From: an uncultured Candidatus Saccharibacteria bacterium
Lineage (GTDB): Bacteria > Patescibacteriota > Minisyncoccia > Phycocordibacterales > Phycocordibacteraceae
NCBI GenBank assembly: GCA_964550425.1
Contig: CAZJZB010000001.1
Coordinates: 3,509 to 67,508, forward strand
Length of the DNA: 64,000 nucleotides
Direction: 5' to 3'
The position numbers and the translations under genes were made by a program. Positions 22,491 through 32,047 of the stretch are shown here, in pieces (within the stretch, counting starts at the first letter, position 1; each line of letters begins with the position of its first letter). Under the pieces are notes generated by a model. That model searched no databases. It worked only from the letters and a program-made list of their open reading frames with translations, and had not been told where the DNA came from.

Positions 22491-22500
22491 AACAATTTTG

Positions 22501-22572
22501 TGCGGGCGGCGGGAGTCGAACCCGCGCTGACTGCTTGGAAGGCAGCCGTCATAGCCGTTAGACCACGCCCGC
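22501..22572 (-). tRNA. tRNA-Gly (anticodon TCC); CCA not encoded
   Basis: Hand-folded cloverleaf: acceptor GCGGGCG/CGCCCGC, anticodon stem GCTGC/GCAGT, loop CTTCCAA, T-arm GCGGG-TTCGACT-CCCGC. Confidence 0.75.
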
Positions 22573-22686
22573 GCTTGCCCTTCGTAGCTCAAAGAGCGTA
22601 GTAGGGTTAGTGCGAGAATACCAGGAAACGAGTGTCCGTGCGAAGTATTTTGCACACTGTCTTTCAAAACGATTGTGCGCTAGCGT

Positions 22687-23835
22687 ATGGGGATGAACCA
22701 CCTTGCGCCCTATCTCGGCATCGTAACTGCCCTTTTTATTGGTATTTTTATCGCCGCTTTTTATAGCACTCACACCACTTCGCCCGTTTCAACAACCACA
22801 GTTCCTACATCCTCTCCAACGCTTTCTGTAGCACCACATCCCCCTCCGCTCCCGCCTCCATCGCAAGAGAATATCGCGACAAGTACCACATCATCCACGA
22901 TTCCCGTTCAAAAGAAAAAAGTTATTGCGCCTTCGGATCCAATCGTATCTACATCATCTGCTTCACAACCGGTCTCTATTTCAACAACGCTCACCCAATC
23001 TGAAAGTGCAGCACTCGATGCTGCCGCATCGGCGCTGCGTAGCGCACTCGTGAATATCATCTGCAATGTTTCTGCCGGAGGCGGCTTGCGCTCCATTAGC
23101 GGCAGCGGCGTTTTCATCGATCCTAAAGGCATCATCCTCACCAACGCGCATATTGCACAACATTTTCTCCTAGCCGACCGTAACGTTTCCTGCGTCATTC
23201 GCTCGGGAAGTCCTGCTACGGAGAGGTATGCTGCCGCACTTATATATATTTCACCTGATTGGCTTAAAGTGAATGCGGGAACACTTACCGAGGCGCTGCC
23301 AAGCGGGACCGGCGAATACGACTTCGCGCTCCTCGCGGTCTCTAAAAGCGCTACGACCGCGGTACTTCCCGCCGTATTCCCTTTCGTACCGCTCGCCACC
23401 ATACCGTCCTCTTCCAAAACACCAGTCGTCATTGCTTCCTACGGCGCGCAATTTCTCGAATCGAATCAGGTGCGGTTCTCTCTCTTCCCAACGATCGTTT
23501 TCGGTTCCGTGAAAGATGTATTTACTTTTGCTGTGAATAGTATCGATGTATTGGCGCTGGGCGGATCGGCTGCCGCGCAGGAGGGCTCTTCAGGCGGGGG
23601 CGTGGTCGATGCGGCCGGCGCTCTCATCGGCACTATCACTACCAGTACGGTTAAGGGCGCGACCAATACGCGTTCTTTAAACGCCATTACGGCATCTTAT
23701 ATTCGTGCCGAGTATGCAAGTGAGACAGGGGACGCTCTCGATCTTCTTCTTTCTAAACCGACCACCACTTCCATCAATGATTTCGCGCCGCAGATACCGG
23801 CTCTTGAATCAATCCTCACCGCTCATTTGCCTTAA
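22687..23835 (+). CDS. membrane-anchored trypsin-like (S1/chymotrypsin-fold) serine protease
   Basis: TM anchor, Pro/Ser/Thr linker, GSGVFIDPKGIILTNAHI (His) ... GSSGGGVVD (Ser). Confidence 0.6.
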   Translation: MGMNHLAPYLGIVTALFIGIFIAAFYSTHTTSPVSTTTVPTSSPTLSVAPHPPPLPPPSQENIATSTTSSTIPVQKKKVIAPSDPIVSTSSASQPVSISTTLTQSESAALDAAASALRSALVNIICNVSAGGGLRSISGSGVFIDPKGIILTNAHIAQHFLLADRNVSCVIRSGSPATERYAAALIYISPDWLKVNAGTLTEALPSGTGEYDFALLAVSKSATTAVLPAVFPFVPLATIPSSSKTPVVIASYGAQFLESNQVRFSLFPTIVFGSVKDVFTFAVNSIDVLALGGSAAAQEGSSGGGVVDAAGALIGTITTSTVKGATNTRSLNAITASYIRAEYASETGDALDLLLSKPTTTSINDFAPQIPALESILTAHLP

Positions 23836-23929
23836 CTATCGGGCCGCCGAGAATTGGACTCGGTCTACCTGCTCCCAAAGCAGGCGTACTACCGGCATAC
23901 TCCGGCCCGTTGCTCCGCACTGTAACACC

Positions 23930-24328
23930 CTATACGATTTGTGGTAGGTAGGTGATGCGCGCTGCACCGTCCCGACGTCGCAGCCAGACGAGACAACCGT
24001 CTATCTGCCACTCCCCTTCCCAATTTTTCTCAGAGACATACCACTCTCCCGTCCGCGCGACCTTCCGAATTTTTGCCGCATGAAGATTAAGAGATGGGTC
24101 ATACGCATCTTCCCCTTTACATTCCGCCAGAGGGAATTCGTCGGCAAGTACCGTCTTCACTTCAACAAAGTGCAGCGTACTTTCTTTCTCTGCGATTATG
24201 TCGAGCTCACCGGTCTTGCGCGCAAAATTTCGATCTCTGATAAAGAAACCGTGCCGTCGTAAGTACTCGGCAGCTACATTCTCGCCAAAGGTACCCACTT
24301 CCTTACGAGTTTTAGAAGATAGATCCAC
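23930..24328 (-). CDS. yraN: YraN-family (UPF0102) endonuclease-like protein
   Basis: GELDIIAEKESTLHFVEVK core. Confidence 0.7.
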   Translation of the reverse strand: MDLSSKTRKEVGTFGENVAAEYLRRHGFFIRDRNFARKTGELDIIAEKESTLHFVEVKTVLADEFPLAECKGEDAYDPSLNLHAAKIRKVARTGEWYVSEKNWEGEWQIDGCLVWLRRRDGAARITYLPQIV

Positions 24329-24460
24329 GGCCTTTAGAAATATGGCTCATTCGTTGAGTATACTCTAGGACCACTCTTAGAAATAGTTATTAGACGCATG
24401 TCCTTTATCCCCAGTATCCCCAATGTTATCCACTTACGACACGGAACCAAAAGACACACA

Positions 24461-24486
24461 AAAATGGCTCAATCGAGCCATTTTTG
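24461..24486 (-). terminator. hairpin terminator downstream of tRNA-Gly(GCC) and its trailer
   Basis: AAAATGGCTC-aatc-GAGCCATTTT, followed by a T-run on the minus strand. Confidence 0.5.
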
Positions 24487-24639
24487 CGTTTAAGAAACTT
24501 TAAGTCAAATCTATCTTTCGGTGCGGGGGAGAACCGTGATTACACTTTCGGCCACGGATAATTTTCTCGCCGCCGCTCGAAAATTTCCTCGGCCCCGCCT
24601 CGCGGTTTTGCCTGTTGGCAAAACATCGCTCCGGCATTC

Positions 24640-24657
24640 GATTCTCCCTACTCGTCC
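24640..24657 (+). repeat. 18-nt inverted copy of the tRNA-Gly(GCC) 3' end (T-loop to acceptor)
   Basis: TTCGATTCTCCCTACTCG is identical to tRNA positions on the opposite strand, 20 nt beyond the tRNA 3' end. Confidence 0.7.
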
Positions 24658-24676
24658 CATCCTCGCTATGCTCGTC

Positions 24677-24750
24677 TGGTGCGAGTAGGGAGAATCGAAC
24701 TCCCATCATCTGATTGGCAACCAGATGTTCTACCATTGAACCATACCCGC
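24677..24750 (-). tRNA. tRNA-Gly (anticodon GCC); CCA encoded
   Basis: Acceptor GCGGGTA/TACTCGC, D-arm GTTC/GAAC, anticodon loop TTGCCAA, T-arm GGGAG-TTCGATT-CTCCC, then ACCA. Confidence 0.8.
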
Positions 24751-24970
24751 GCTAGGCGACATGATACCATGTCGCCAGTTTTTATTTCCAGTGCAGTATT
24801 CTTGAATTAGTCCGAACGCATTTCGCCGCCTGCGGCGGTAAAGAAGTCCCCCCGCGAAAATTCGGAAAGGCGGCGGGCCGCGCCGCTGATTCAGCAGAAT
24901 CACCTACTGGGTGACAATTTCAAGTTTTTCTTTGGCGGCATTCAATTATGAATTTACAAAATAAATACAA

Positions 24971-25853
24971 CTACGCCTTAGGAGTTTCAATATTTCCTCC
25001 CTCAATCGGGTTTACTTCCGGCTTTATTTCACCTGGCGGAATTTCACCCTCCGGAACTTCTAACTTTTCCTCTGGCTTAGGTTCTTCGGGCTTCTCCTCT
25101 TCCAGCTTCTGTTTTTCTTCTTCCAATTTTTTGTCCACGCGCTCGGTTGCTTCTTTGGTTAAGTCCTCATCAAATTTTTTCAAAAGGTCTGGTAATGCTT
25201 CAAGAATTTTTGGCAGTAGTTTAATTCCTTCTTTGAAAGCTTTCGCCAAAGATTGCGCCATTTCCGGATTGAGAGAACCCATTGACTTGCTTTCAACATT
25301 TCGTCCCTCAGGAGTTTTCCCGCTCTTAAAAATGCTTTCAAAGTCACGGGGATTAAGTCCCTCAAATTCCTTGAACACTTCGTCAAGTTTTTCTTGTAGA
25401 ATTTTTTCTTTTTCTTCGCGGATAAGCCGTTCTTTTTCCTGTTGGCTGATAAGTTCCTCTTTTTGTTTTTCTAATCCTTCTTGTTCGGCTTTGAGTTTTT
25501 CCAATTTATCTTTTTCTGAAAACACACTTGGCGGGTCTTCTTCTGTTGGCGGAAGTCCAAGTTTTTCTCTCGCGGCGTTTAGGGCAGATTTTGTTCCTTC
25601 AACAGATTCTGATAAACGAGTTATTTCTTCTTGCTTGGCCTTGGCTTCGCCCTCTAAATTTTTAAGCTGTTCTTCCGGCGATAATTCAGGTTCTTCTGCT
25701 ACTTGTTCTTGCCCTTCTTCTGCTTTTAATTTTTCCAATTCTTCCGGTGTAAGTTCGCCCTCCAGTTTTTTCCCAGCATTAACATCAGCACCAACCTCGT
25801 TGGGATTTAGTTCTGCATTATTCGTATTTGGAGCACCTTCAAATTTTGGCATA
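24971..25853 (-). CDS. Glu/Lys-rich coiled-coil protein (hypothetical)
   Basis: EK-rich heptads. The Ser-rich + strand ORF 24948..26213 is its codon-complement shadow. Start chosen at MPKFEG. Confidence 0.45.
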
Positions 25854-25986
25854 GTTTTTGTTGAATGTATTAAAAAATTTTCTTCCCCCAAAATTAAAAT
25901 ATGGTTCGAGCCGATGTTTTTCTCCGGGTTCTTTTGCGGTTTTGAGCGGTATTGTTCGCACTTCCATTTTAGCATAATTCCTTTCT

Positions 25987-26003
25987 GGTGCGCCCGCCAG
26001 GAC
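25987..26003. repeat. direct partial copy of the tRNA-Arg 3' end, including a CCA
   Basis: TGGTGCGCCCGCCAGGA compared with the tRNA 3' end TGTGCGCCCGCCAGGA at 26141..26156; ~135 bp apart. Confidence 0.55.
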
Positions 26004-26142
26004 CGCGATTACGCTTATCGAAACTTACAGTTTCAGTACACCTTGCGGATTTTCTGTTCGCTTCGCTTCATAAAATGCTCGCAAGGTCTTCGATTCCTGT
26101 TCGCACGCCTCCCAGGCGTGCTTCGGGGCACATTCTCGCTTT

Positions 26143-26215
26143 GCTCGTATGTGCGCCCGCCAGGAATCGAACCCGGAACCTCTTCGTCCGAAGCGAAGCG
26201 CTCTATCCGTTGAGC
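26143..26215 (-). tRNA. tRNA-Arg (anticodon TCG); CCA not encoded
   Basis: Acceptor GCGCCCG/CGGGCGC, D-arm GCTC/GAGC, anticodon stem CTTCG/CGAAG with loop CTTCGGA, T-arm CCGGG-TTCGATT-CCTGG. Confidence 0.75.
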
Positions 26216-26231
26216 TACGGGCGCGTAGCGA

Positions 26232-26261: not shown

Positions 26262-26313
26262 TCTCGCCCCGAGCGCACAACCCCATACTACGACACTGTG
26301 CTACGATTCGGAA

Positions 26314-27777
26314 ATGCACTATCGTATTCCGAATGAAGTTGCAAAGGTGGGTGATGGCCTGCGCGGCGCTGGATTTGAGTCATATCTTGTCGGCGGATGC
26401 GTTCGCGACCTTGTTATCGGGCGAGAACCCAAGGATTGGGACATTACCACTAATGCAACACCGGAGCAGATTCAGGCCGTATTTCCCGACTCTTTTTACG
26501 AAAATGATTACGGCACAGTCGGAGTGAAGACGGGCTCAGATGATTCTCGCCTTTCCATCATTGAGGTAACTCCCTATCGCACCGAATCCGCCTATTCCGA
26601 TAAGCGCCGGCCGGACAAAGTAGAATTCGGCACTTCCCTTCCAGAAGACCTCGCGCGCCGCGACTTCACCATAAATGCCATTGCACTAGACGATTCTAAA
26701 GGACACATAATTGATCCCTACGAAGGTCAAAAGGACATAAAGGACAAAATGGTACGAGCAGTCGGTAACGCCTCCGAGCGACTCAATGAAGACGCTCTAC
26801 GCATGCTGCGTGCGGTCCGTTTAGTCGCTGAGCTTGAATTCGGTATAGAAAGTAATACCGCAGCCGCCATAAGCGAAAATAGCAAGCATTTAAGACATGT
26901 TTCACGTGAAAGGATTCGTGATGAGTTCATTAGGATATTGAATTCAAGCCAGCCGATGAATGCTCTTGTTCTCGCACAGCAACTTGGCATCCTGGAATTC
27001 ATTGTCCCTGACATTATTCGCGGCATTGGCGTTGAGCAGAACCAGGCCCATTCATATGACGTTTTCGGACATAATCTCCGGACTATGCAGCATGCGGCTG
27101 ACAAAGAGTGGGGATTTGATATCCGTCTTGCTGGTCTCTATCACGACATTTCAAAACCGGAGACCCGTCGTTGGTCTGAAGAGAAAAAGGACTGGACATT
27201 CCATGGTCATGAAGTTGTTGGTTCACGTGTAACAAAGAAAGCCCTTGAAGATCTACATTTTTCACGCGAAACAATAGATAAAGTCGTTAAATTAGTACGA
27301 TGGCACATGTTTTTCTCTGATCCAGAGCAAATTACACTCTCCGCTGTGCGCCGCATGATAAAGAACGTTGGCGAAGAAAATATATGGGACTTACTCAATC
27401 TCCGTATCTGCGACCGTGTCGGGACTGGTCGGCCAAAGGAACAGCCATTTCGGTTCCGCAAGTATAAAGCGATGGTTGACCAAGCGCTTCGCGATCCAAT
27501 ATCTGTATCTATGCTTAAGACAGACGGTAGGCATATTATGGATAAGTTTCATATGAAACCAGGACCTAAAATAGGATGGACACTCAATGCTCTTCTTGAG
27601 GAAATACTTGATGATTCTGATAAAAATACAGAGGAATATCTCGATAAAAGGACAGAAAACCTACTTAAAATGCCTGAAGATGAGCTAAAGAAGCTCGGAG
27701 AGGCGGGGAAGTTGCGTCGTGAAGCAGCTGAAGATGAGGAAATAAAGCATATAATGGAGAAATATCACGTCTGTTAG
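26314..27777 (+). CDS. cca: CCA-adding tRNA nucleotidyltransferase with HD domain
   Basis: GGCVRD, RRDFTINA polymerase-beta-like head; HD (HDISK); 487 aa. Confidence 0.85.
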   Translation: MHYRIPNEVAKVGDGLRGAGFESYLVGGCVRDLVIGREPKDWDITTNATPEQIQAVFPDSFYENDYGTVGVKTGSDDSRLSIIEVTPYRTESAYSDKRRPDKVEFGTSLPEDLARRDFTINAIALDDSKGHIIDPYEGQKDIKDKMVRAVGNASERLNEDALRMLRAVRLVAELEFGIESNTAAAISENSKHLRHVSRERIRDEFIRILNSSQPMNALVLAQQLGILEFIVPDIIRGIGVEQNQAHSYDVFGHNLRTMQHAADKEWGFDIRLAGLYHDISKPETRRWSEEKKDWTFHGHEVVGSRVTKKALEDLHFSRETIDKVVKLVRWHMFFSDPEQITLSAVRRMIKNVGEENIWDLLNLRICDRVGTGRPKEQPFRFRKYKAMVDQALRDPISVSMLKTDGRHIMDKFHMKPGPKIGWTLNALLEEILDDSDKNTEEYLDKRTENLLKMPEDELKKLGEAGKLRREAAEDEEIKHIMEKYHVC

Positions 27778-27839
27778 CGTTTTTTAACATCAAAATGGTT
27801 CACGTGTAACACACAACCAAAGTTCTTAAAGATAAAAAC

Positions 27840-27930
27840 AACAAAGCCACCCGTTGGTGGCAAGAGACGAAAAGGAGCAATGGGCGTAAGTTGGTGTCTC
27901 TAGCCCGAGAAATTGGGGTGGCTTGTTTAT
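27840..27930 (+). ncRNA. nested stem-loop element downstream of cca (terminator or small structured RNA)
   Basis: Outer stem AAACAAAGCCACCC/GGGTGGCTTGTTT enclosing inner stem AGAGAC/GTCTCT. Confidence 0.3.
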
Positions 27931-28199
27931 ATACTTCTGGCGCTTTTCTACTTCAAGATACCGTGCCGGATGGCTTGTATCGCGGATCGCCGCGGCGCAG
28001 GCAGGCACTCGTGTGATAGCGCTCTGATTTCGACAGATATAAAGATCAAGAAGGTACATCCGGTCCCTCATTGATAGTATTCTAGTAAAGGACAAAGTAA
28101 AGGACGCCCTGTGGATAAAGGACATAAGTCCTTAATGACAAACATCCAACAATAAACTTACAACGAATGCATTTAAATTCCGTTGTTTGTTGGAAGCTG

Positions 28200-28262
28200 T
28201 TAGTTGGTGGTTATGCTAATCGGGCAGTGGTCGGAGCCGTAGACGTCAGGGTAGATAACAGC
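28200..28262 (-). pseudogene. 3'-terminal fragment of a second exodeoxyribonuclease III gene
   Basis: Encodes ...VIYPDVYGSDHCPISITTN*, cf. the xth C-terminus ...ICSDIYGSDHCPVSITIG* at 28797. DNA GGGCAGTGGTCGGAGCCGTAGA is repeated at 28223 and 28820. No upstream xth body. Confidence 0.5.
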
Positions 28263-28313
28263 TTGACTTTGAAGAGGGGAGGTAATAAAGTAAGAAAGTA
28301 AGGAATTTAATAT

Positions 28314-28589
28314 ATGCAAACAATAGAAAAAATACAAAAGATAACAAGCAAGGGGCAGATTACTCTGCCAGTGGCATGGCGACGTCACACTGGAGCACAT
28401 ACCATTTCTGTAACAACAAGAGGGAATCGAATAGAGATAGCTCCTGCGAGGCTCCAAAAAGTTTCCGAGCACACGGTTTTTAATGCCGTCCGAGATAATA
28501 ATGGGAAGGGAATAAAAATTGATAAACTCATAAGAATCTTGGAGAAATTAGTAAAAGAAGATGAACGACATAGAAAAATTACTGCGTAA
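28314..28589 (+). CDS. AbrB/MazE/SpoVT-type antitoxin
   Basis: SKGQITLPVAWRR swapped-hairpin motif. Confidence 0.6.
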   Translation: MQTIEKIQKITSKGQITLPVAWRRHTGAHTISVTTRGNRIEIAPARLQKVSEHTVFNAVRDNNGKGIKIDKLIRILEKLVKEDERHRKITA

Positions 28590-28800
28590 GGTTCATCCTC
28601 GCGATAAAGTCGTTCTGCTAGAGACCTTGCGTGCGCTCAGGCATGGGGAGTTGGACAGGTTCCGCGTGGAGAAAGTAACCGGTAGTGATTTTTATAAAGT
28701 ACGAAAAGGAAATTTCAGATTCGTTTTTCATCATGAAAACAGCGCGATTGTCGTTGACACGGTAAAGCTCCGCAATGAGAAAACATATCGCGGTTTTTAG
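28561..28800 (+). CDS. RelE/ParE-like toxin
   Basis: GSDFYKVRKGNFRFVFHHENSAIVVDTVKLRNEKTY; overlaps the antitoxin by 29 nt. Confidence 0.6.
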   Translation: MNDIEKLLRKVHPRDKVVLLETLRALRHGELDRFRVEKVTGSDFYKVRKGNFRFVFHHENSAIVVDTVKLRNEKTYRGF

Positions 28801-29564
28801 CCGATGGTTATAGAAACAGGGCAGTGGTCGGAGCCGTAGATATCACTGCATATCTCGGCTTTCTTAATATGTTTTATGAATTCGTTCGCAACGAAGAAAT
28901 AATCGATCCGCCAGCCGACATTTCTATCGCGGGCGCGCGTCTTCATATCCCAATATGTATAGGCATTCGCGGTATGAGGGTGAAAATGCCGAAATGAGTC
29001 AACGTAACCGGCGCCGACAATTTCATCTATCCATGCACGTTCTTTCGGTAGAAATCCAGTATTTTCTTCATTCTCTTTAGGCCTTGCGAGGTCTATTTCC
29101 TCATGCGCAGTGTTCACGTCGCCGCAGAATATGACCGGTTTTTGCTTGTGTAATTTCTCTGTGAATGCGAGAAAGGCGTCGTAGAAACGCATTTTATAAT
29201 CAAGACGTTCCGGACCTTGTCCGCCATTTGGGAAGTAGACATTCAAGAGCCAGAAGTCCTCATATTCGGCTCCGATAAGGCGTCCTTCCTGATCGAATTC
29301 CTTTATTCCCATACCGTAGATGACCGACAACGGCTCGATCTTTGAATAGAGGGCGACGCCGCTGTAGCCCTTTCTCACCTGCGAGGATGAAAAGAAAGAG
29401 GAGAAGCCGGCAGGGGAGAGCATTTCCTGCGAAACTTGCTCCGGATTCGCTTTGGTCTCTTGGAGGCAGAAGATATCGGGCTTGGTGCCCTTCAAAAACG
29501 ATTCCCAATAGCCATTTTTTGCGAGGGATCGCAACCCATTTACGTTCCACGAGACGATTTTCAT
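28797..29564 (-). CDS. xth: exodeoxyribonuclease III
   Basis: WNVNGLR, CLQETK, GDFN-like, SDHCPV motifs. Confidence 0.9.
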   Translation of the reverse strand: MKIVSWNVNGLRSLAKNGYWESFLKGTKPDIFCLQETKANPEQVSQEMLSPAGFSSFFSSSQVRKGYSGVALYSKIEPLSVIYGMGIKEFDQEGRLIGAEYEDFWLLNVYFPNGGQGPERLDYKMRFYDAFLAFTEKLHKQKPVIFCGDVNTAHEEIDLARPKENEENTGFLPKERAWIDEIVGAGYVDSFRHFHPHTANAYTYWDMKTRARDRNVGWRIDYFFVANEFIKHIKKAEICSDIYGSDHCPVSITIG

Positions 29565-29632
29565 GCATCCATTCTATATCATCAATCGCTTCGCCGTCAG
29601 ACCAAAAATAATTAATTAAGAGGGAAAGTACC

Positions 29633-29673
29633 TATCCACTAAATACTGCTATAACAGGAATATAGTGGATACT
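29633..29673. repeat. nested-palindrome dispersed repeat, copy 1
   Basis: TATCCACTAAATACTGCTATAACAGGAATATAGTGGATA. Confidence 0.7.
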
Positions 29674-29707
29674 AGGCAGTGAAGAACATCCTTCTAGGAT
29701 TATGTAG

Positions 29708-30949
29708 ATGATATACTCAAAGCCGATGGACTTTTTGACAAACCAAAGAGGGTTTATTCAGATACCGCTTCTTATTGTAATCACTATAGGTTTTTTGATT
29801 TTAAGTGGTGAGGGATATGTAAGGTTTGAACAATACCAAGACCGTAAAGACAACGACGGCCTCTTCGTCAGTGAGGAATTCACGAAGAATCTTAACACTG
29901 AGTTTGCGACCGAGAATAATCAAAGCACCAGCACCCCAAAACTTTCGGAGGTTGAAAAGTTAAAAAATGAAGTGGCTGAGTTGAAATCAAAAAAAGAAGT
30001 AAATACAAAAACAAGCGAAGAACCCATCAAGAAAGCCTATGAAAAGCCCATTCTATCAAAGAAAGAGAAAACAGAAATAAATAAAGAAAAAATTATACAA
30101 ACGCCTCCCCCACAGAAGCCGGAACTATATTTGGGGAAAGACCAATTCATTTTTATACCAGTGAATTGGAATCGGGCCAAAGGGGACTTTGATATTTCTG
30201 TCAGCGCAGCAATGAAAGAATTTAAAAAGCAATATCTTGAGCTCCAGAAGCGCGCATTTCCCTTGCTGGATAGTGACGAGGCGTACTTCAATAGCAGATT
30301 TGAGGCAATCAACCTTACTAATTGCATAGATATCTGCCGTCTAGAAAGGTTGCCAACAAGCGGTTTTGATTTAGAAAACTTATGTTCAAACCAATGCCTT
30401 GATAAGAAACGACTCTATGACCCCTATCCAACCTTTATTGGTATAAGCAACGATGAAAAATTTTTTGGCAAAAACTTTCAAGAATACCTCACTATTTTAG
30501 TAGATCTGCGTAACTTGAGAAATGTATCGACCGTTGTACATGAAATCGGACATCTTTTTTGGTCTCTCTGTGACGAGTATAAGTATAGTTTGTGGCAGCA
30601 ACAAGATAAGTACTGGCCCGAATTTAAAGGAGTCAAAGGATGTCCTAATCCTTATCCGCTTACTTGTGCTGACCACCCGCAATGGATTAATAACGAAGAG
30701 AACTACCTTACATACGTGCACGGGCTTGGTCTCACCTGGGGAGGGTACAAACAGACCACTACTGACGAAAAAATTGAAAAAGAAACAGGTATCGCCTTCT
30801 GTCCTGGCGCAGTATGTACTCCGCAAGCAGGATACGATCAATGCAGAAGCACGATGGGACCCACTTTTACTCCGGACGATATACTATATTTTTTTGGAGG
30901 AAAACTAGAGACCAGAATTCCCATCGAGGCAATACTACCCCCTTGGTAA
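29708..30949 (+). CDS. secreted/membrane-anchored HExxH protein (putative zinc metalloprotease); AT-rich gene
   Basis: N-terminal TM helix, Lys/Glu-rich linker, Cys-rich C-terminal domain with HEIGHLF. Confidence 0.45.
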   Translation: MIYSKPMDFLTNQRGFIQIPLLIVITIGFLILSGEGYVRFEQYQDRKDNDGLFVSEEFTKNLNTEFATENNQSTSTPKLSEVEKLKNEVAELKSKKEVNTKTSEEPIKKAYEKPILSKKEKTEINKEKIIQTPPPQKPELYLGKDQFIFIPVNWNRAKGDFDISVSAAMKEFKKQYLELQKRAFPLLDSDEAYFNSRFEAINLTNCIDICRLERLPTSGFDLENLCSNQCLDKKRLYDPYPTFIGISNDEKFFGKNFQEYLTILVDLRNLRNVSTVVHEIGHLFWSLCDEYKYSLWQQQDKYWPEFKGVKGCPNPYPLTCADHPQWINNEENYLTYVHGLGLTWGGYKQTTTDEKIEKETGIAFCPGAVCTPQAGYDQCRSTMGPTFTPDDILYFFGGKLETRIPIEAILPPW

Positions 30950-30986
30950 CTGGGCAGTTTACTTTTCCGGAGGGTATCTCAGACGT

Positions 30987-31015
30987 AACCTGTAGACACC
31001 CAGTGTCTACAGGTT
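30987..31015. terminator. perfect 13-bp-arm palindrome between the convergent HExxH gene and xer gene
   Basis: AACCTGTAGACAC-cca-GTGTCTACAGGTT. Confidence 0.5.
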
Positions 31016-31066
31016 TGTATACCTTAAATAAAGGGGGTTCTGATCGGTATCTTATTTTCAATCGGC

Positions 31067-32047
31067 TCAGTTGCGGCCTTTCCCGTGATATTTTTTGTGA
31101 ATTTCGCGGAGGTGGGAGTCGGTAATATGCGTATAAATTTGGGTCGTATTGATGGAAGCGTGGCCAAGGAGCTGTTGAACTGAGCGGATATCGGCGCCGT
31201 TACTGAGCAAATCAGTGGCAAATGCGTGGCGGAGCGTGTGTGGTGTGACGACATTTGTGATGCCGGCACGCGCGACGTACGACTTCAGGTGCCGTTGGAT
31301 ATCGCGCGGAATGATGCGATGCAATTTGTTCGGCCGGCCGTCGACAAAGAGCGCTTCCTCCATATCTTTTCTCGCTTTGAGATAGTCACGCACGGCCTCT
31401 TTGGCAGAAGGGGAGAGGAAAACGACACGGACTTTCTCACCTTTGCCGCGCACCGATAATTCATCGCGTGTTAAATCGATATCGGCGTTTAGTGCGCAGA
31501 GTTCGGACACGCGCAGGCCGGTCGAGAAGAGGAGTTCTAAGATTGCGCGGTCTCGCAGATACTGGATTTTCTTGTTCTCGTCGGTTTCTTTCGCCAATGC
31601 CTCCCCGGGCGCTCGCATGAGCCGCTCCAGTTCGGCGGAAGTAATGAGATCAAGTTGGCGCTCGGGAAGTTTCGCTAACTCTATCTTTTCCGGAGAAATG
31701 GCGACAATGTCGCGCTTGCGAAGGAACTTGAGAAATGCGCGCAGAGCGATCATGTAGTAATTCTGGGTCCGGCGCTTCATGGAATCGGCAGCCGTACCCG
31801 GCTGCCGATTGAGCCAAAGGCGGAATTCGCGGATATTTTGCTCGGTGATATCGCCGACGTCTTTTATCTCCATCTGTGCGAAGTAGCGGGTGAGATAATG
31901 GTCATAATTCTCGACGGTCTTCACTGCGCGCCCGCGCTCTATCTCTATATATTCCAGAAATTGCCGTTTCGCTGTTTCAACCCCCATTGATGAGTAGTAT
32001 AGCGCGATATTTGCATATTTCTGCAAGACGTGGTAAGGTAGAAACAT
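31067..32047 (-). CDS. tyrosine recombinase XerC/XerD family
   Basis: R...HTLRHAFATDLL...LLGHASINTTQIYTHI catalytic motifs (R-H-R-Y). Confidence 0.85.
   Translation of the reverse strand: MFLPYHVLQKYANIALYYSSMGVETAKRQFLEYIEIERGRAVKTVENYDHYLTRYFAQMEIKDVGDITEQNIREFRLWLNRQPGTAADSMKRRTQNYYMIALRAFLKFLRKRDIVAISPEKIELAKLPERQLDLITSAELERLMRAPGEALAKETDENKKIQYLRDRAILELLFSTGLRVSELCALNADIDLTRDELSVRGKGEKVRVVFLSPSAKEAVRDYLKARKDMEEALFVDGRPNKLHRIIPRDIQRHLKSYVARAGITNVVTPHTLRHAFATDLLSNGADIRSVQQLLGHASINTTQIYTHITDSHLREIHKKYHGKGRN

Follow-up and report, generated by a model that had tools for sequence, protein, structure and literature searches.

A putative non-autonomous toxin–antitoxin cassette with a surrogate xth end at a recurrent insertion point in uncultured Patescibacteria

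A stretch of 64,000 nucleotides (nt) from an uncultured Candidatus Saccharibacteria bacterium (assembly GCA_964550425.1, contig CAZJZB010000001.1, positions 3,509 to 67,508 of the forward strand), referred to below as the window, was analyzed around the 3′ end of xth, the gene for exodeoxyribonuclease III. In this window a toxin–antitoxin (TA) gene pair separates xth from a displaced copy of its own end. The arrangement is best read as a non-autonomous integrative cassette that brought a surrogate end of xth with it and would have been placed by site-specific recombination, with the recombinase acting in trans (estimated probability about 0.65). Comparison with relatives establishes the insertion, the boundaries of the inserted unit and its recurrence at one point, and shows that the cassettes carry no recombinase gene. 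All evidence is comparative, and most of the relatives are metagenome-assembled contigs.

Duplicated end of xth

The product of xth was matched over its full length by the exodeoxyribonuclease III equivalog TIGR00633 (E=6e-95). It was aligned with the Mth212 structure 3g91 (E=4.7e-90) through the GSDHCP motif, and the APE1 structure was likewise matched through this motif. The protein ends in ...IYGSDHCPVSITIG. A second version of this end, ...VYGSDHCPISITTN, has its stop at 28200 and is called the orphan below. In a repeat search, 28200-28264 was recovered as a direct repeat of 28797-28861, representing the last ~21 codons of xth on the minus strand, with 74% identity over 65 nt. Both copies are in register from their stop codons and are spaced by 597 nt. 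The exact 22-mer GGGCAGTGGTCGGAGCCGTAGA occurs at 28222-28243 and 28819-28840, and these are its only two copies in the window even with three mismatches allowed (expected copies in 100 shuffles, 0). Because the 20-nt core TACGGCTCCGACCACTGCCC is conserved at the nucleotide level in most or nearly all xth orthologues of the clade, exact identity over 22 nt is by itself no proof of a recent duplication.

The open reading frame (ORF) around the orphan (28200..28472, minus strand; 90 amino acids, aa) runs antisense to the antitoxin gene, contains no xth body and gave no Pfam match. The original prediction, made from the window alone, of a diverged xth end at 28200 without a gene body attached was thereby confirmed. 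The duplicated end is not an assembly artefact, since three independent assemblies of this population (L001, L002 and L003) have the same structure. Exact-protein look-ups for this population returned the same arrangement only, and the xth and cca products of the window had no database record in them.

Gene content of the cassette

Between the two xth ends lie an antitoxin gene and, overlapping it by 29 nt, a toxin gene (Table 1), as had been proposed for this interval. The pairing is kept in 48 of 48 metagenomic loci. The antitoxin was matched by PF04014 over residues 7-45 (E=6.9e-5; 23.2 bits, below the cut-off of 24.7) and by TIGR01439 (E=2.1e-5; 24.1 bits, below 28.3), and is predicted to be AbrB/MazE-like, just under the curated cut-offs.

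As a single sequence, the 79-aa toxin gave no match in Pfam, NCBIfam, PADLOC or PDB. The profile of its family matched RelE3 (3bpq_B; E=3.3e-4) and aRelE (1wmi; 4.3e-4), and PF05016 (ParE_toxin) was matched by 9 of 27 relatives, with a best E-value of 1.3e-4. In an AlphaFold2 model (pLDDT 85.4), N-terminal helices (H3-10, H13-27) are followed by the antiparallel sheet of three to four strands typical of RelE/ParE toxins (E36-38, E44-49, E52-59, E62-70). Following a Foldseek search of this model against PDB, matches 1 to 12 were all RelE, HigB or RelE-like toxins (probability up to 1.00, template modelling score 0.49-0.59). The earlier gene calls therefore stand, the toxin being assigned by profile, relatives and model to a predicted RelE/ParE fold with predicted toxin activity. 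Its homologues form a small family, and the organism names in their source annotations are of Patescibacteria only.

Like type II RelBE/ParDE and MazEF-type modules, the pair consists of two small overlapping genes with the antitoxin first, an AbrB/MazE-like DNA-binding N-terminus and a toxin of the RelE/ParE fold. It differs from them in its hybrid pairing of an AbrB-type antitoxin with a RelE-type toxin, and in the narrowness of the toxin family (35 clusters, Patescibacteria), which falls below Pfam and NCBIfam thresholds and whose activity is predicted.

The promoter-like site is conserved in all cassette copies. The arm upstream of it ends in GGATAAC and is found before the promoter of MazE-RelE and Phd-RelE-like cassettes in other lineages as well. 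Toxin genes of displaced cassettes at other loci have kept the overlap with an xth tail of this kind.

Boundaries of the mobile unit

When both tails of the window were compared with all orthologues, no clear answer was obtained as to which is native; a segment-wise comparison with L081, the closest cassette relative, gave one. Outside the left edge, identity to L081 was 0.41 in the spacer and 0.52 in the orphan tail with its core (28200-28232). Within the unit it was 0.84 in the arm, 0.88 in the promoter, 0.89 in the antitoxin gene, 0.86 in the toxin gene and 0.88 in the new tail and core. Outside the right edge it was 0.67 in the next 33 nt of xth and 0.65-0.76 in the rest of the gene. The same two steps were seen against L082 and L086. 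Because identity changes at both edges in these comparisons, the boundaries of the mobile unit are placed at 28233-28829, with the arm and the replacement tail included.

Taken as a whole, the cassette is 87.8% identical between the window and L081, against 72.7% for xth, and over 55 pairs the Spearman correlation between cassette identity and xth identity was -0.25. These values point to a history of the cassette that differs from that of xth, that is, to horizontal movement. In L081 and L058, the equivalent orphan tail adjoins the conserved terminator hairpin, at the very position that the live xth stop occupies in species with an empty site. The orphan is therefore the original xth end, left in its place.

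Live ends and intact orphans read, in xth sense, ...TAC GGC TCC | GAC CAC TGC CC... A single phosphodiester, GGGCAGTGGTC|GGAG on the plus strand, is the position of the heterologous junctions; it separates the Ser codon of the catalytic GSDHCP motif from the Asp codon. The left-hand sequences that are not xth all join 5′ of GACCACTGCCC (xth sense), and three types of them were found. The first is a GC-rich hairpin insert of 34-41 nt with the loop motif GCTTCGG, present in at least eight loci, among them L005 (twice), L058, L082/L084, L083, L086, L091 and L094/L095; in 1.47 Mb of retrieved sequence it was confined to the exact GGTC|GGAG point of orphan ends. The insert turns the site into an imperfect palindrome of 16 pairs, three of them compensatory, with a covariation term of -0.71 that gives weak support from seven sequences. 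The second is the stop of a 36-nt alternative tail, directly followed by the older tail, in L020, L044 and L006. This alternative tail has an internal inverted repeat (e.g., GTCGCGA...TCGCGAC), and in L028 a tail of the 36-nt type (DHCPISITVGT*) adjoins a HATPase_c_2/DUF4325 gene. The third is the unrelated sequence CACGTCT|GAC in L006.

The hairpin insert was also considered as a general repeat element. This was rejected, all true copies being located at the xth core.

Synonymous-site entropy at the codons of Asp246, His247 and Cys248 was 0.57-0.67, modestly below a typical value of ~0.95; the codons of Tyr110 and Phe111 are equally low. A constraint on the core at the DNA level is thus no more than suggested by these values. 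By alignment, the segment of xth borne by the cassette corresponds to the catalytic Asp308 and His309 of APE1. The cassette would thus encode catalytic residues of xth, which would explain why the target is dependable and conserved.

Empty sites in related genomes

Using the xth protein, 66 Patescibacteria loci and one distant Enterococcus locus were collected, with one genome per species. The order xer, xth, cca, with xth and cca convergent, is conserved among the scanned loci. Contigs from 53 species include both gene ends. The stops of xth and cca are 283-530 nt apart in 44 of them, with no cassette present; the distance is 531-800 nt in six and more in the remaining three, compared with 1023 nt in the window. 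An intact xth without the cassette is thus common among relatives. L018, which has an empty site, aligns collinearly with window positions 26302-28118 (cca and spacer) and 28796-29586 (xth). The window has 677 bases more, made up of ~80 nt next to the orphan, the 65-nt orphan itself and the remainder of the cassette.

The hairpin at 28104-28125, with more than 90% conservation among species, adjoins the xth stop directly in empty-site genomes; in the window it is located ~670 nt away from the live stop. It is probably the xth terminator, although it is unusually conserved for one.

The ~80 nt at 28119-28199, between this hairpin and the orphan tail, are absent from both L018 and L081 and may be debris of an earlier insertion.

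Recurrence at the xth/cca junction

Cassettes were found at the xth/cca junction in the window and in about a dozen other lineages, comprising MazE-RelE, Phd-RelE-like, HicA and HATPase_c_2/DUF4325 types. Toxin homologues of at least 63% identity with a readable context (L004-L011, L081-L095 and L028 of the species set) are all located at xth and bounded by copies of its end. In these close copies the toxin stop always overlaps an xth tail of constant length, either live or, where a later cassette has inserted, orphan. Homologues of 35-49% identity are located elsewhere and have no xth fragments, and L096 (62%) also has none.

A Phd gene paired with an 80-aa RelE-like gene occupies the identical position, with the same overlap of stop codons, in L005-L007, L043 and L058. 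Similarly, HicA is found there in L055 (PF07927, E=3.6e-10, above the Pfam threshold), and a 350-aa HATPase_c_2/DUF4325 protein in L028, L089 and L090. In one Hainich groundwater species (L005-L009, L093), at least four cassettes are separated by at least three orphan xth ends, all on the xth strand. From xth outward, this array consists of Phd-RelE-like, TrmB with a 78-aa gene, HATPase_c_2/DUF4325 and MazE-RelE units. Near-identical strains (99.4-99.9% in shared parts) differ in cassette content. All copies of the xth end are direct repeats on the xth strand, and the older orphans have decayed (NHFP, AHCP, DYCP, DHYP or frameshifts). The comparison identifies the xth/cca junction as a recurrent cassette landing site in Kaiserbacteria.

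The 350-aa cargo (L005 4398-5450, L028, L089, L090) combines an N-terminal winged helix (weak TrmB/MarR matches) with HATPase_c_2 and a STAS-like DUF4325 domain. TrmB-family regulators are frequent elsewhere in the arrays.

Table 1. Positions of the features discussed, in the window unless a locus is named.
Feature	Position	Strand	Description
cca (CCA-adding enzyme)	26314..27777	+	Conserved left flank of the insertion hot spot
Terminator-like hairpin	28104..28125	-	AAAGGACA-N13-TGTCCTTT, with DnaA-box-like TGTGGATAA in the loop
Orphan xth tail	28200..28232	-	Displaced last 10 codons and stop (DHCPISITTN*), the original end; includes the 11-nt core GGGCAGTGGTC at 28222-28232
Cassette as one unit	28233..28829	+	597 nt: arm, promoter, antitoxin, toxin, replacement tail, core; repeat period 597
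xth-like arm of the cassette	28233..28264	-	32 nt, encodes ...AVIYPDVYGS; left edge 28232|28233 (plus strand) is the inferred crossover
Promoter-like site	28263..28291	+	TTGACT, 17 nt, TAAAGT; then direct repeat GTAAG(A/G)AAGTAAGGAA
Antitoxin gene	28314..28589	+	91 aa, N-terminal domain of AbrB/MazE (SpoVT-AbrB) type
Toxin gene	28561..28800	+	79 aa, predicted RelE/ParE superfamily; stop codon overlaps the xth stop (4-nt convergent overlap)
Replacement xth tail	28797..28829	-	DHCPVSITIG* including stop; core copy 28819-28829; putative right crossover 28829|28830 (plus strand)
xth (exodeoxyribonuclease III)	28797..29564	-	255 aa, intact; codons from Asp246 on cassette-supplied
Xer-type tyrosine recombinase	31067..32047	-	PF00589, E=2.4e-41; candidate trans-acting recombinase
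Hairpin insert	L005 4262-4295 and 6809-6842; L058, L082, L083, L086, L091, L094		Promoter side of cassettes
36-nt alternative xth tail	L020 6028-6093; L044 8736-8798; L006 3520-3590		DHCPV[AL]IT[IL][AG]T*, no cargo before the older tail

Proposed mechanism

Direct repeats, a fixed junction, a restored reading frame, tandem accretion, empty sites and sharp boundaries together form the pattern of conservative site-specific integration of a circle into an attB site. From this pattern we infer conservative site-specific recombination catalyzed in trans. In short, a small cassette circle would recombine at the fixed point in xth, with an attachment site that mimics the gene end. The gene would stay intact and read Asp-His-Cys-Pro to the stop from the cassette, and the old end (28200-28232) would be left as an orphan beside the old terminator. 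Serial insertions would displace older cassettes and their tails outward, giving rise to arrays with the newest unit next to xth. By analogy with the TA cassettes of integrons (PMC13108822), the TA pair may stabilize the cassette and so counter its deletion through exchange between the direct repeats.

The original prediction had taken the structure for a TA element inserted into the 3′ end of xth with target duplication, or for recombination between the ends of two xth paralogues. Insertion was borne out by the empty sites, the collinearity with L018, the constant position of the cassettes at xth and the identity boundaries at the repeat edges. Duplication of the transposon type was not: the cassette brings its own arm, the last 10 codons and the stop, so that the duplication looks like one of the att type.

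Core direct repeats in the orientation of the target, a surrogate 3′ end and unoccupied sites in relatives, all found here, are features of integrative elements in the 3′ ends of protein genes. An element-encoded integrase is lacking: the cassette contains the two TA genes only, and no recombinase gene was found in any cassette or array examined. Because the units of 0.6-1.3 kb carry no integrase, the enzyme would have to act in trans. The most obvious candidate, with a weak link to the site, is the neighboring Xer, the only such gene in the window. The XerD, XerC and XerA models gave ~236-241 bits for it, and its translation has the conserved catalytic motifs RVSEL, HTLRH, GHAS and IYTH. The xer gene is syntenic with xth across the clade. 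A xer gene near the recombination site recalls XerS/difSL and XerH/difH, in which gene and site are adjacent.

Several observations weigh against site-specific recombination. No recombinase is tied to the site. The xer-xth-cca order is kept to the same degree in species with an empty site and in distant classes that lack cassettes, so that the adjacency of xer may be coincidental. By-eye inspection of tail, core and arm revealed no obvious pair of inverted binding arms (roughly 11 bp each around a centre of 6-8 bp in dif-like sites) and no dif-like 28-bp palindrome around the core; no formal dif-site model exists for the candidate phyla radiation (CPR). Scans of viral contigs and blastn searches of plasmids and phages revealed neither a circular or excised form nor an attP on a phage or plasmid. 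L010 and L090 carry a cassette and no recognizable orphan on the promoter side. Finally, some haplotype breakpoints among near-identical (99%) strains lie outside the cores, and near-universal identity of the core over 20-22 nt in the clade could reproduce the observed identity boundaries by another route.

Regarding the searches, two core-pattern scans of viral contigs gave 9 and 24 matches, which is about chance by a rough estimate from 17-mer frequency and collection size. Neither xth nor TA genes nor extended similarity accompanied any of these, the best of which (L134) is part of a phage structural gene. Plasmids and phages returned nothing when searched by blastn with 28200-28862. The GC-skew profile over the 64 kb was noisy, with no usable sign change for a terminus or dif.

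The other route to these boundaries is spread by RecA. A single rare illegitimate event would have produced the orphan-cassette-xth arrangement, which would then have spread among Kaiserbacteria by RecA-dependent double crossovers following DNA uptake, the left one falling in the orphan (in its conserved core or its tail) and the right one in the xth core, with no dedicated recombinase. A length of 20-22 nt is about the minimum for RecA exchange. The breakpoints outside the cores and the lack of a recombinase linked to the cassettes fit this course, and the hairpin-containing orphans are all homologous and could share one event of origin. It leaves unaccounted for, however, how at least three unrelated left-hand sequences (the hairpin, TAG of the 36-nt tail and CACGTCT) came to the same phosphodiester. 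Moreover, in three comparisons identity on the xth side changes directly at the core and not elsewhere in 768 bp of homology, and four types of cargo share the same arm-and-tail architecture. RecA spread is considered a serious rival of lower probability and site-specific recombination the more likely process; both may also act together.

The orphan might also be the relic of a decayed xth paralogue or of a gene end that was duplicated in tandem, with the TA pair merely lying between the copies. The orphan does still encode an intact DHCPISITTN* tail, and a further 32 nt are xth-like. This explanation is very improbable, and the earlier suggestion of recombination between paralogue ends is unsupported: a second xth body was found in 0 of 66 loci, orphans never exceed ~65 nt, the arm is 84% identical to that of L081 and matches the window's own xth at 21 of 32 positions, and empty sites have a single xth adjoining the terminator hairpin. 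Least credible is a true integron, with the neighboring tyrosine recombinase as IntI and the xth-end copies as attC/attI: small cassettes, in many cases TA pairs, do form a one-orientation array near a tyrosine recombinase gene, and the site variant with the hairpin folds into an imperfect palindrome, but integron membership was rejected on the score of the integrase with TIGR02249 (128.6 bits in two stretches, cut-off 265, against ~236-241 bits on Xer models), NF011946 gave 81 against 435, the repeated site is an xth coding fragment and not an attC with R''/R' boxes (a hairpin being present in a subset only), the recombinase gene is separated from the array by xth, and the cassettes have their own promoters.

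Comparison with known systems

Integration into the ends of trmE, dusA or tRNA genes is a familiar pattern of islands. Genomic islands and prophages in the 3′ ends of conserved protein genes supply a surrogate end, e.g., SGI1 in trmE (PMC6531882, PMC8409611). The xth cassettes resemble these in the direct att-core repeats at the borders, a target kept intact by supplied codons, empty sites and tandem accretion. They differ in size and equipment, being 0.6-1.3 kb long and devoid of a recombinase, whereas the islands are kilobases long with their own integrase beside att. The target (xth), the CPR host and a replaced segment that would include the catalytic Asp-His also set them apart.

Dif modules of Acinetobacter, which often carry TA pairs (PMC6449649, PMC13141974), and integrative mobile elements exploiting Xer (IMEX; PMC6449649, PMC13141974, PMC9226527) are likewise small, recombinase-less, site-bounded and thought to be moved by host Xer; in the present case, a Xer gene is conserved beside the site. 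Dif modules are plasmid-borne, and the XerC/XerD sites at their borders are 28 bp long and often alternate in orientation. The present repeat, by contrast, is a direct, coding, non-palindromic fragment of chromosomal xth in which no dif-like motif was recognized by eye, and Xer is a candidate only.

The TA cassettes of sedentary chromosomal integrons (PMC13108822) form short arrays in one orientation, have their own promoters, are thought to stabilize the array and enter at one fixed site, all of which is similar here. Unlike these, the present system has no IntI and no attC, and its capture site is located inside a housekeeping gene that each cassette must restore. In a literature search of incomplete coverage and with no query naming xth, neither integration into xth nor cassette arrays of Patescibacteria were found to be described; prior absence is not established by it.

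Significance

Mobile elements of the CPR are poorly known, and small CPR genomes are often regarded as static. To our knowledge, very few mobile elements have been found in this radiation. In the clade studied here, a hot spot precise to the nucleotide gathers TA and other small cassettes without recombinases, each of which must rebuild the catalytic end of a DNA-repair gene. The capture point is located two genes from an Xer-type recombinase, with TA pairs and HATPase_c_2/DUF4325 genes as cargo. A cassette-capture platform of Kaiserbacteria analogous to an integron, in which host Xer or another housekeeping recombinase builds serial arrays at a fixed point in xth, can be proposed tentatively and would represent a new class of CPR cassettes; we regard it as doubtful at present. 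If a housekeeping recombinase does drive capture, a gene-capture system of the integron or dif-module kind would have arisen independently, and a concrete 60-bp substrate would be available for recombination studies in an uncultivated lineage. Orphan gene ends can serve as markers of serial insertion, which helps to find cassettes in metagenomes and to avoid calling short xth fragments pseudogenes.

Other features of the window

The spacer between cca and xth contains a conserved block of ~190-205 nt (27836-28040, minus strand) that ends in a terminator-like hairpin, GCCACC-AACG-GGTGGC followed by TTTGTTGTTT, at 27861-27846. Using MAFFT and RNAalifold on 14 species, compensatory changes were found in 13 of 19 predicted pairs. 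An Rfam scan of the spacer gave no match at the gathering threshold nor at E<=1. The block is a candidate for an unannotated structured RNA downstream of xth.

The interval between xth and xer (29565-31066 in the window) is variable in the clade, from ~30 nt to ~5 kb, and no flanking repeats were found in that of the window. It contains a 413-aa gene with a weak Peptidase_M64 match (29708..30949), which is absent from L010 and L018.

Just upstream of cca, four tRNA genes (Gly-TCC, Pro-TGG, Gly-GCC and Arg-TCG) are located on the minus strand within 22500-26224. A long Ser-rich ORF on the plus strand (24948..26213) is probably not a real gene, since it overlaps a minus-strand ORF and the tRNA-Arg gene.

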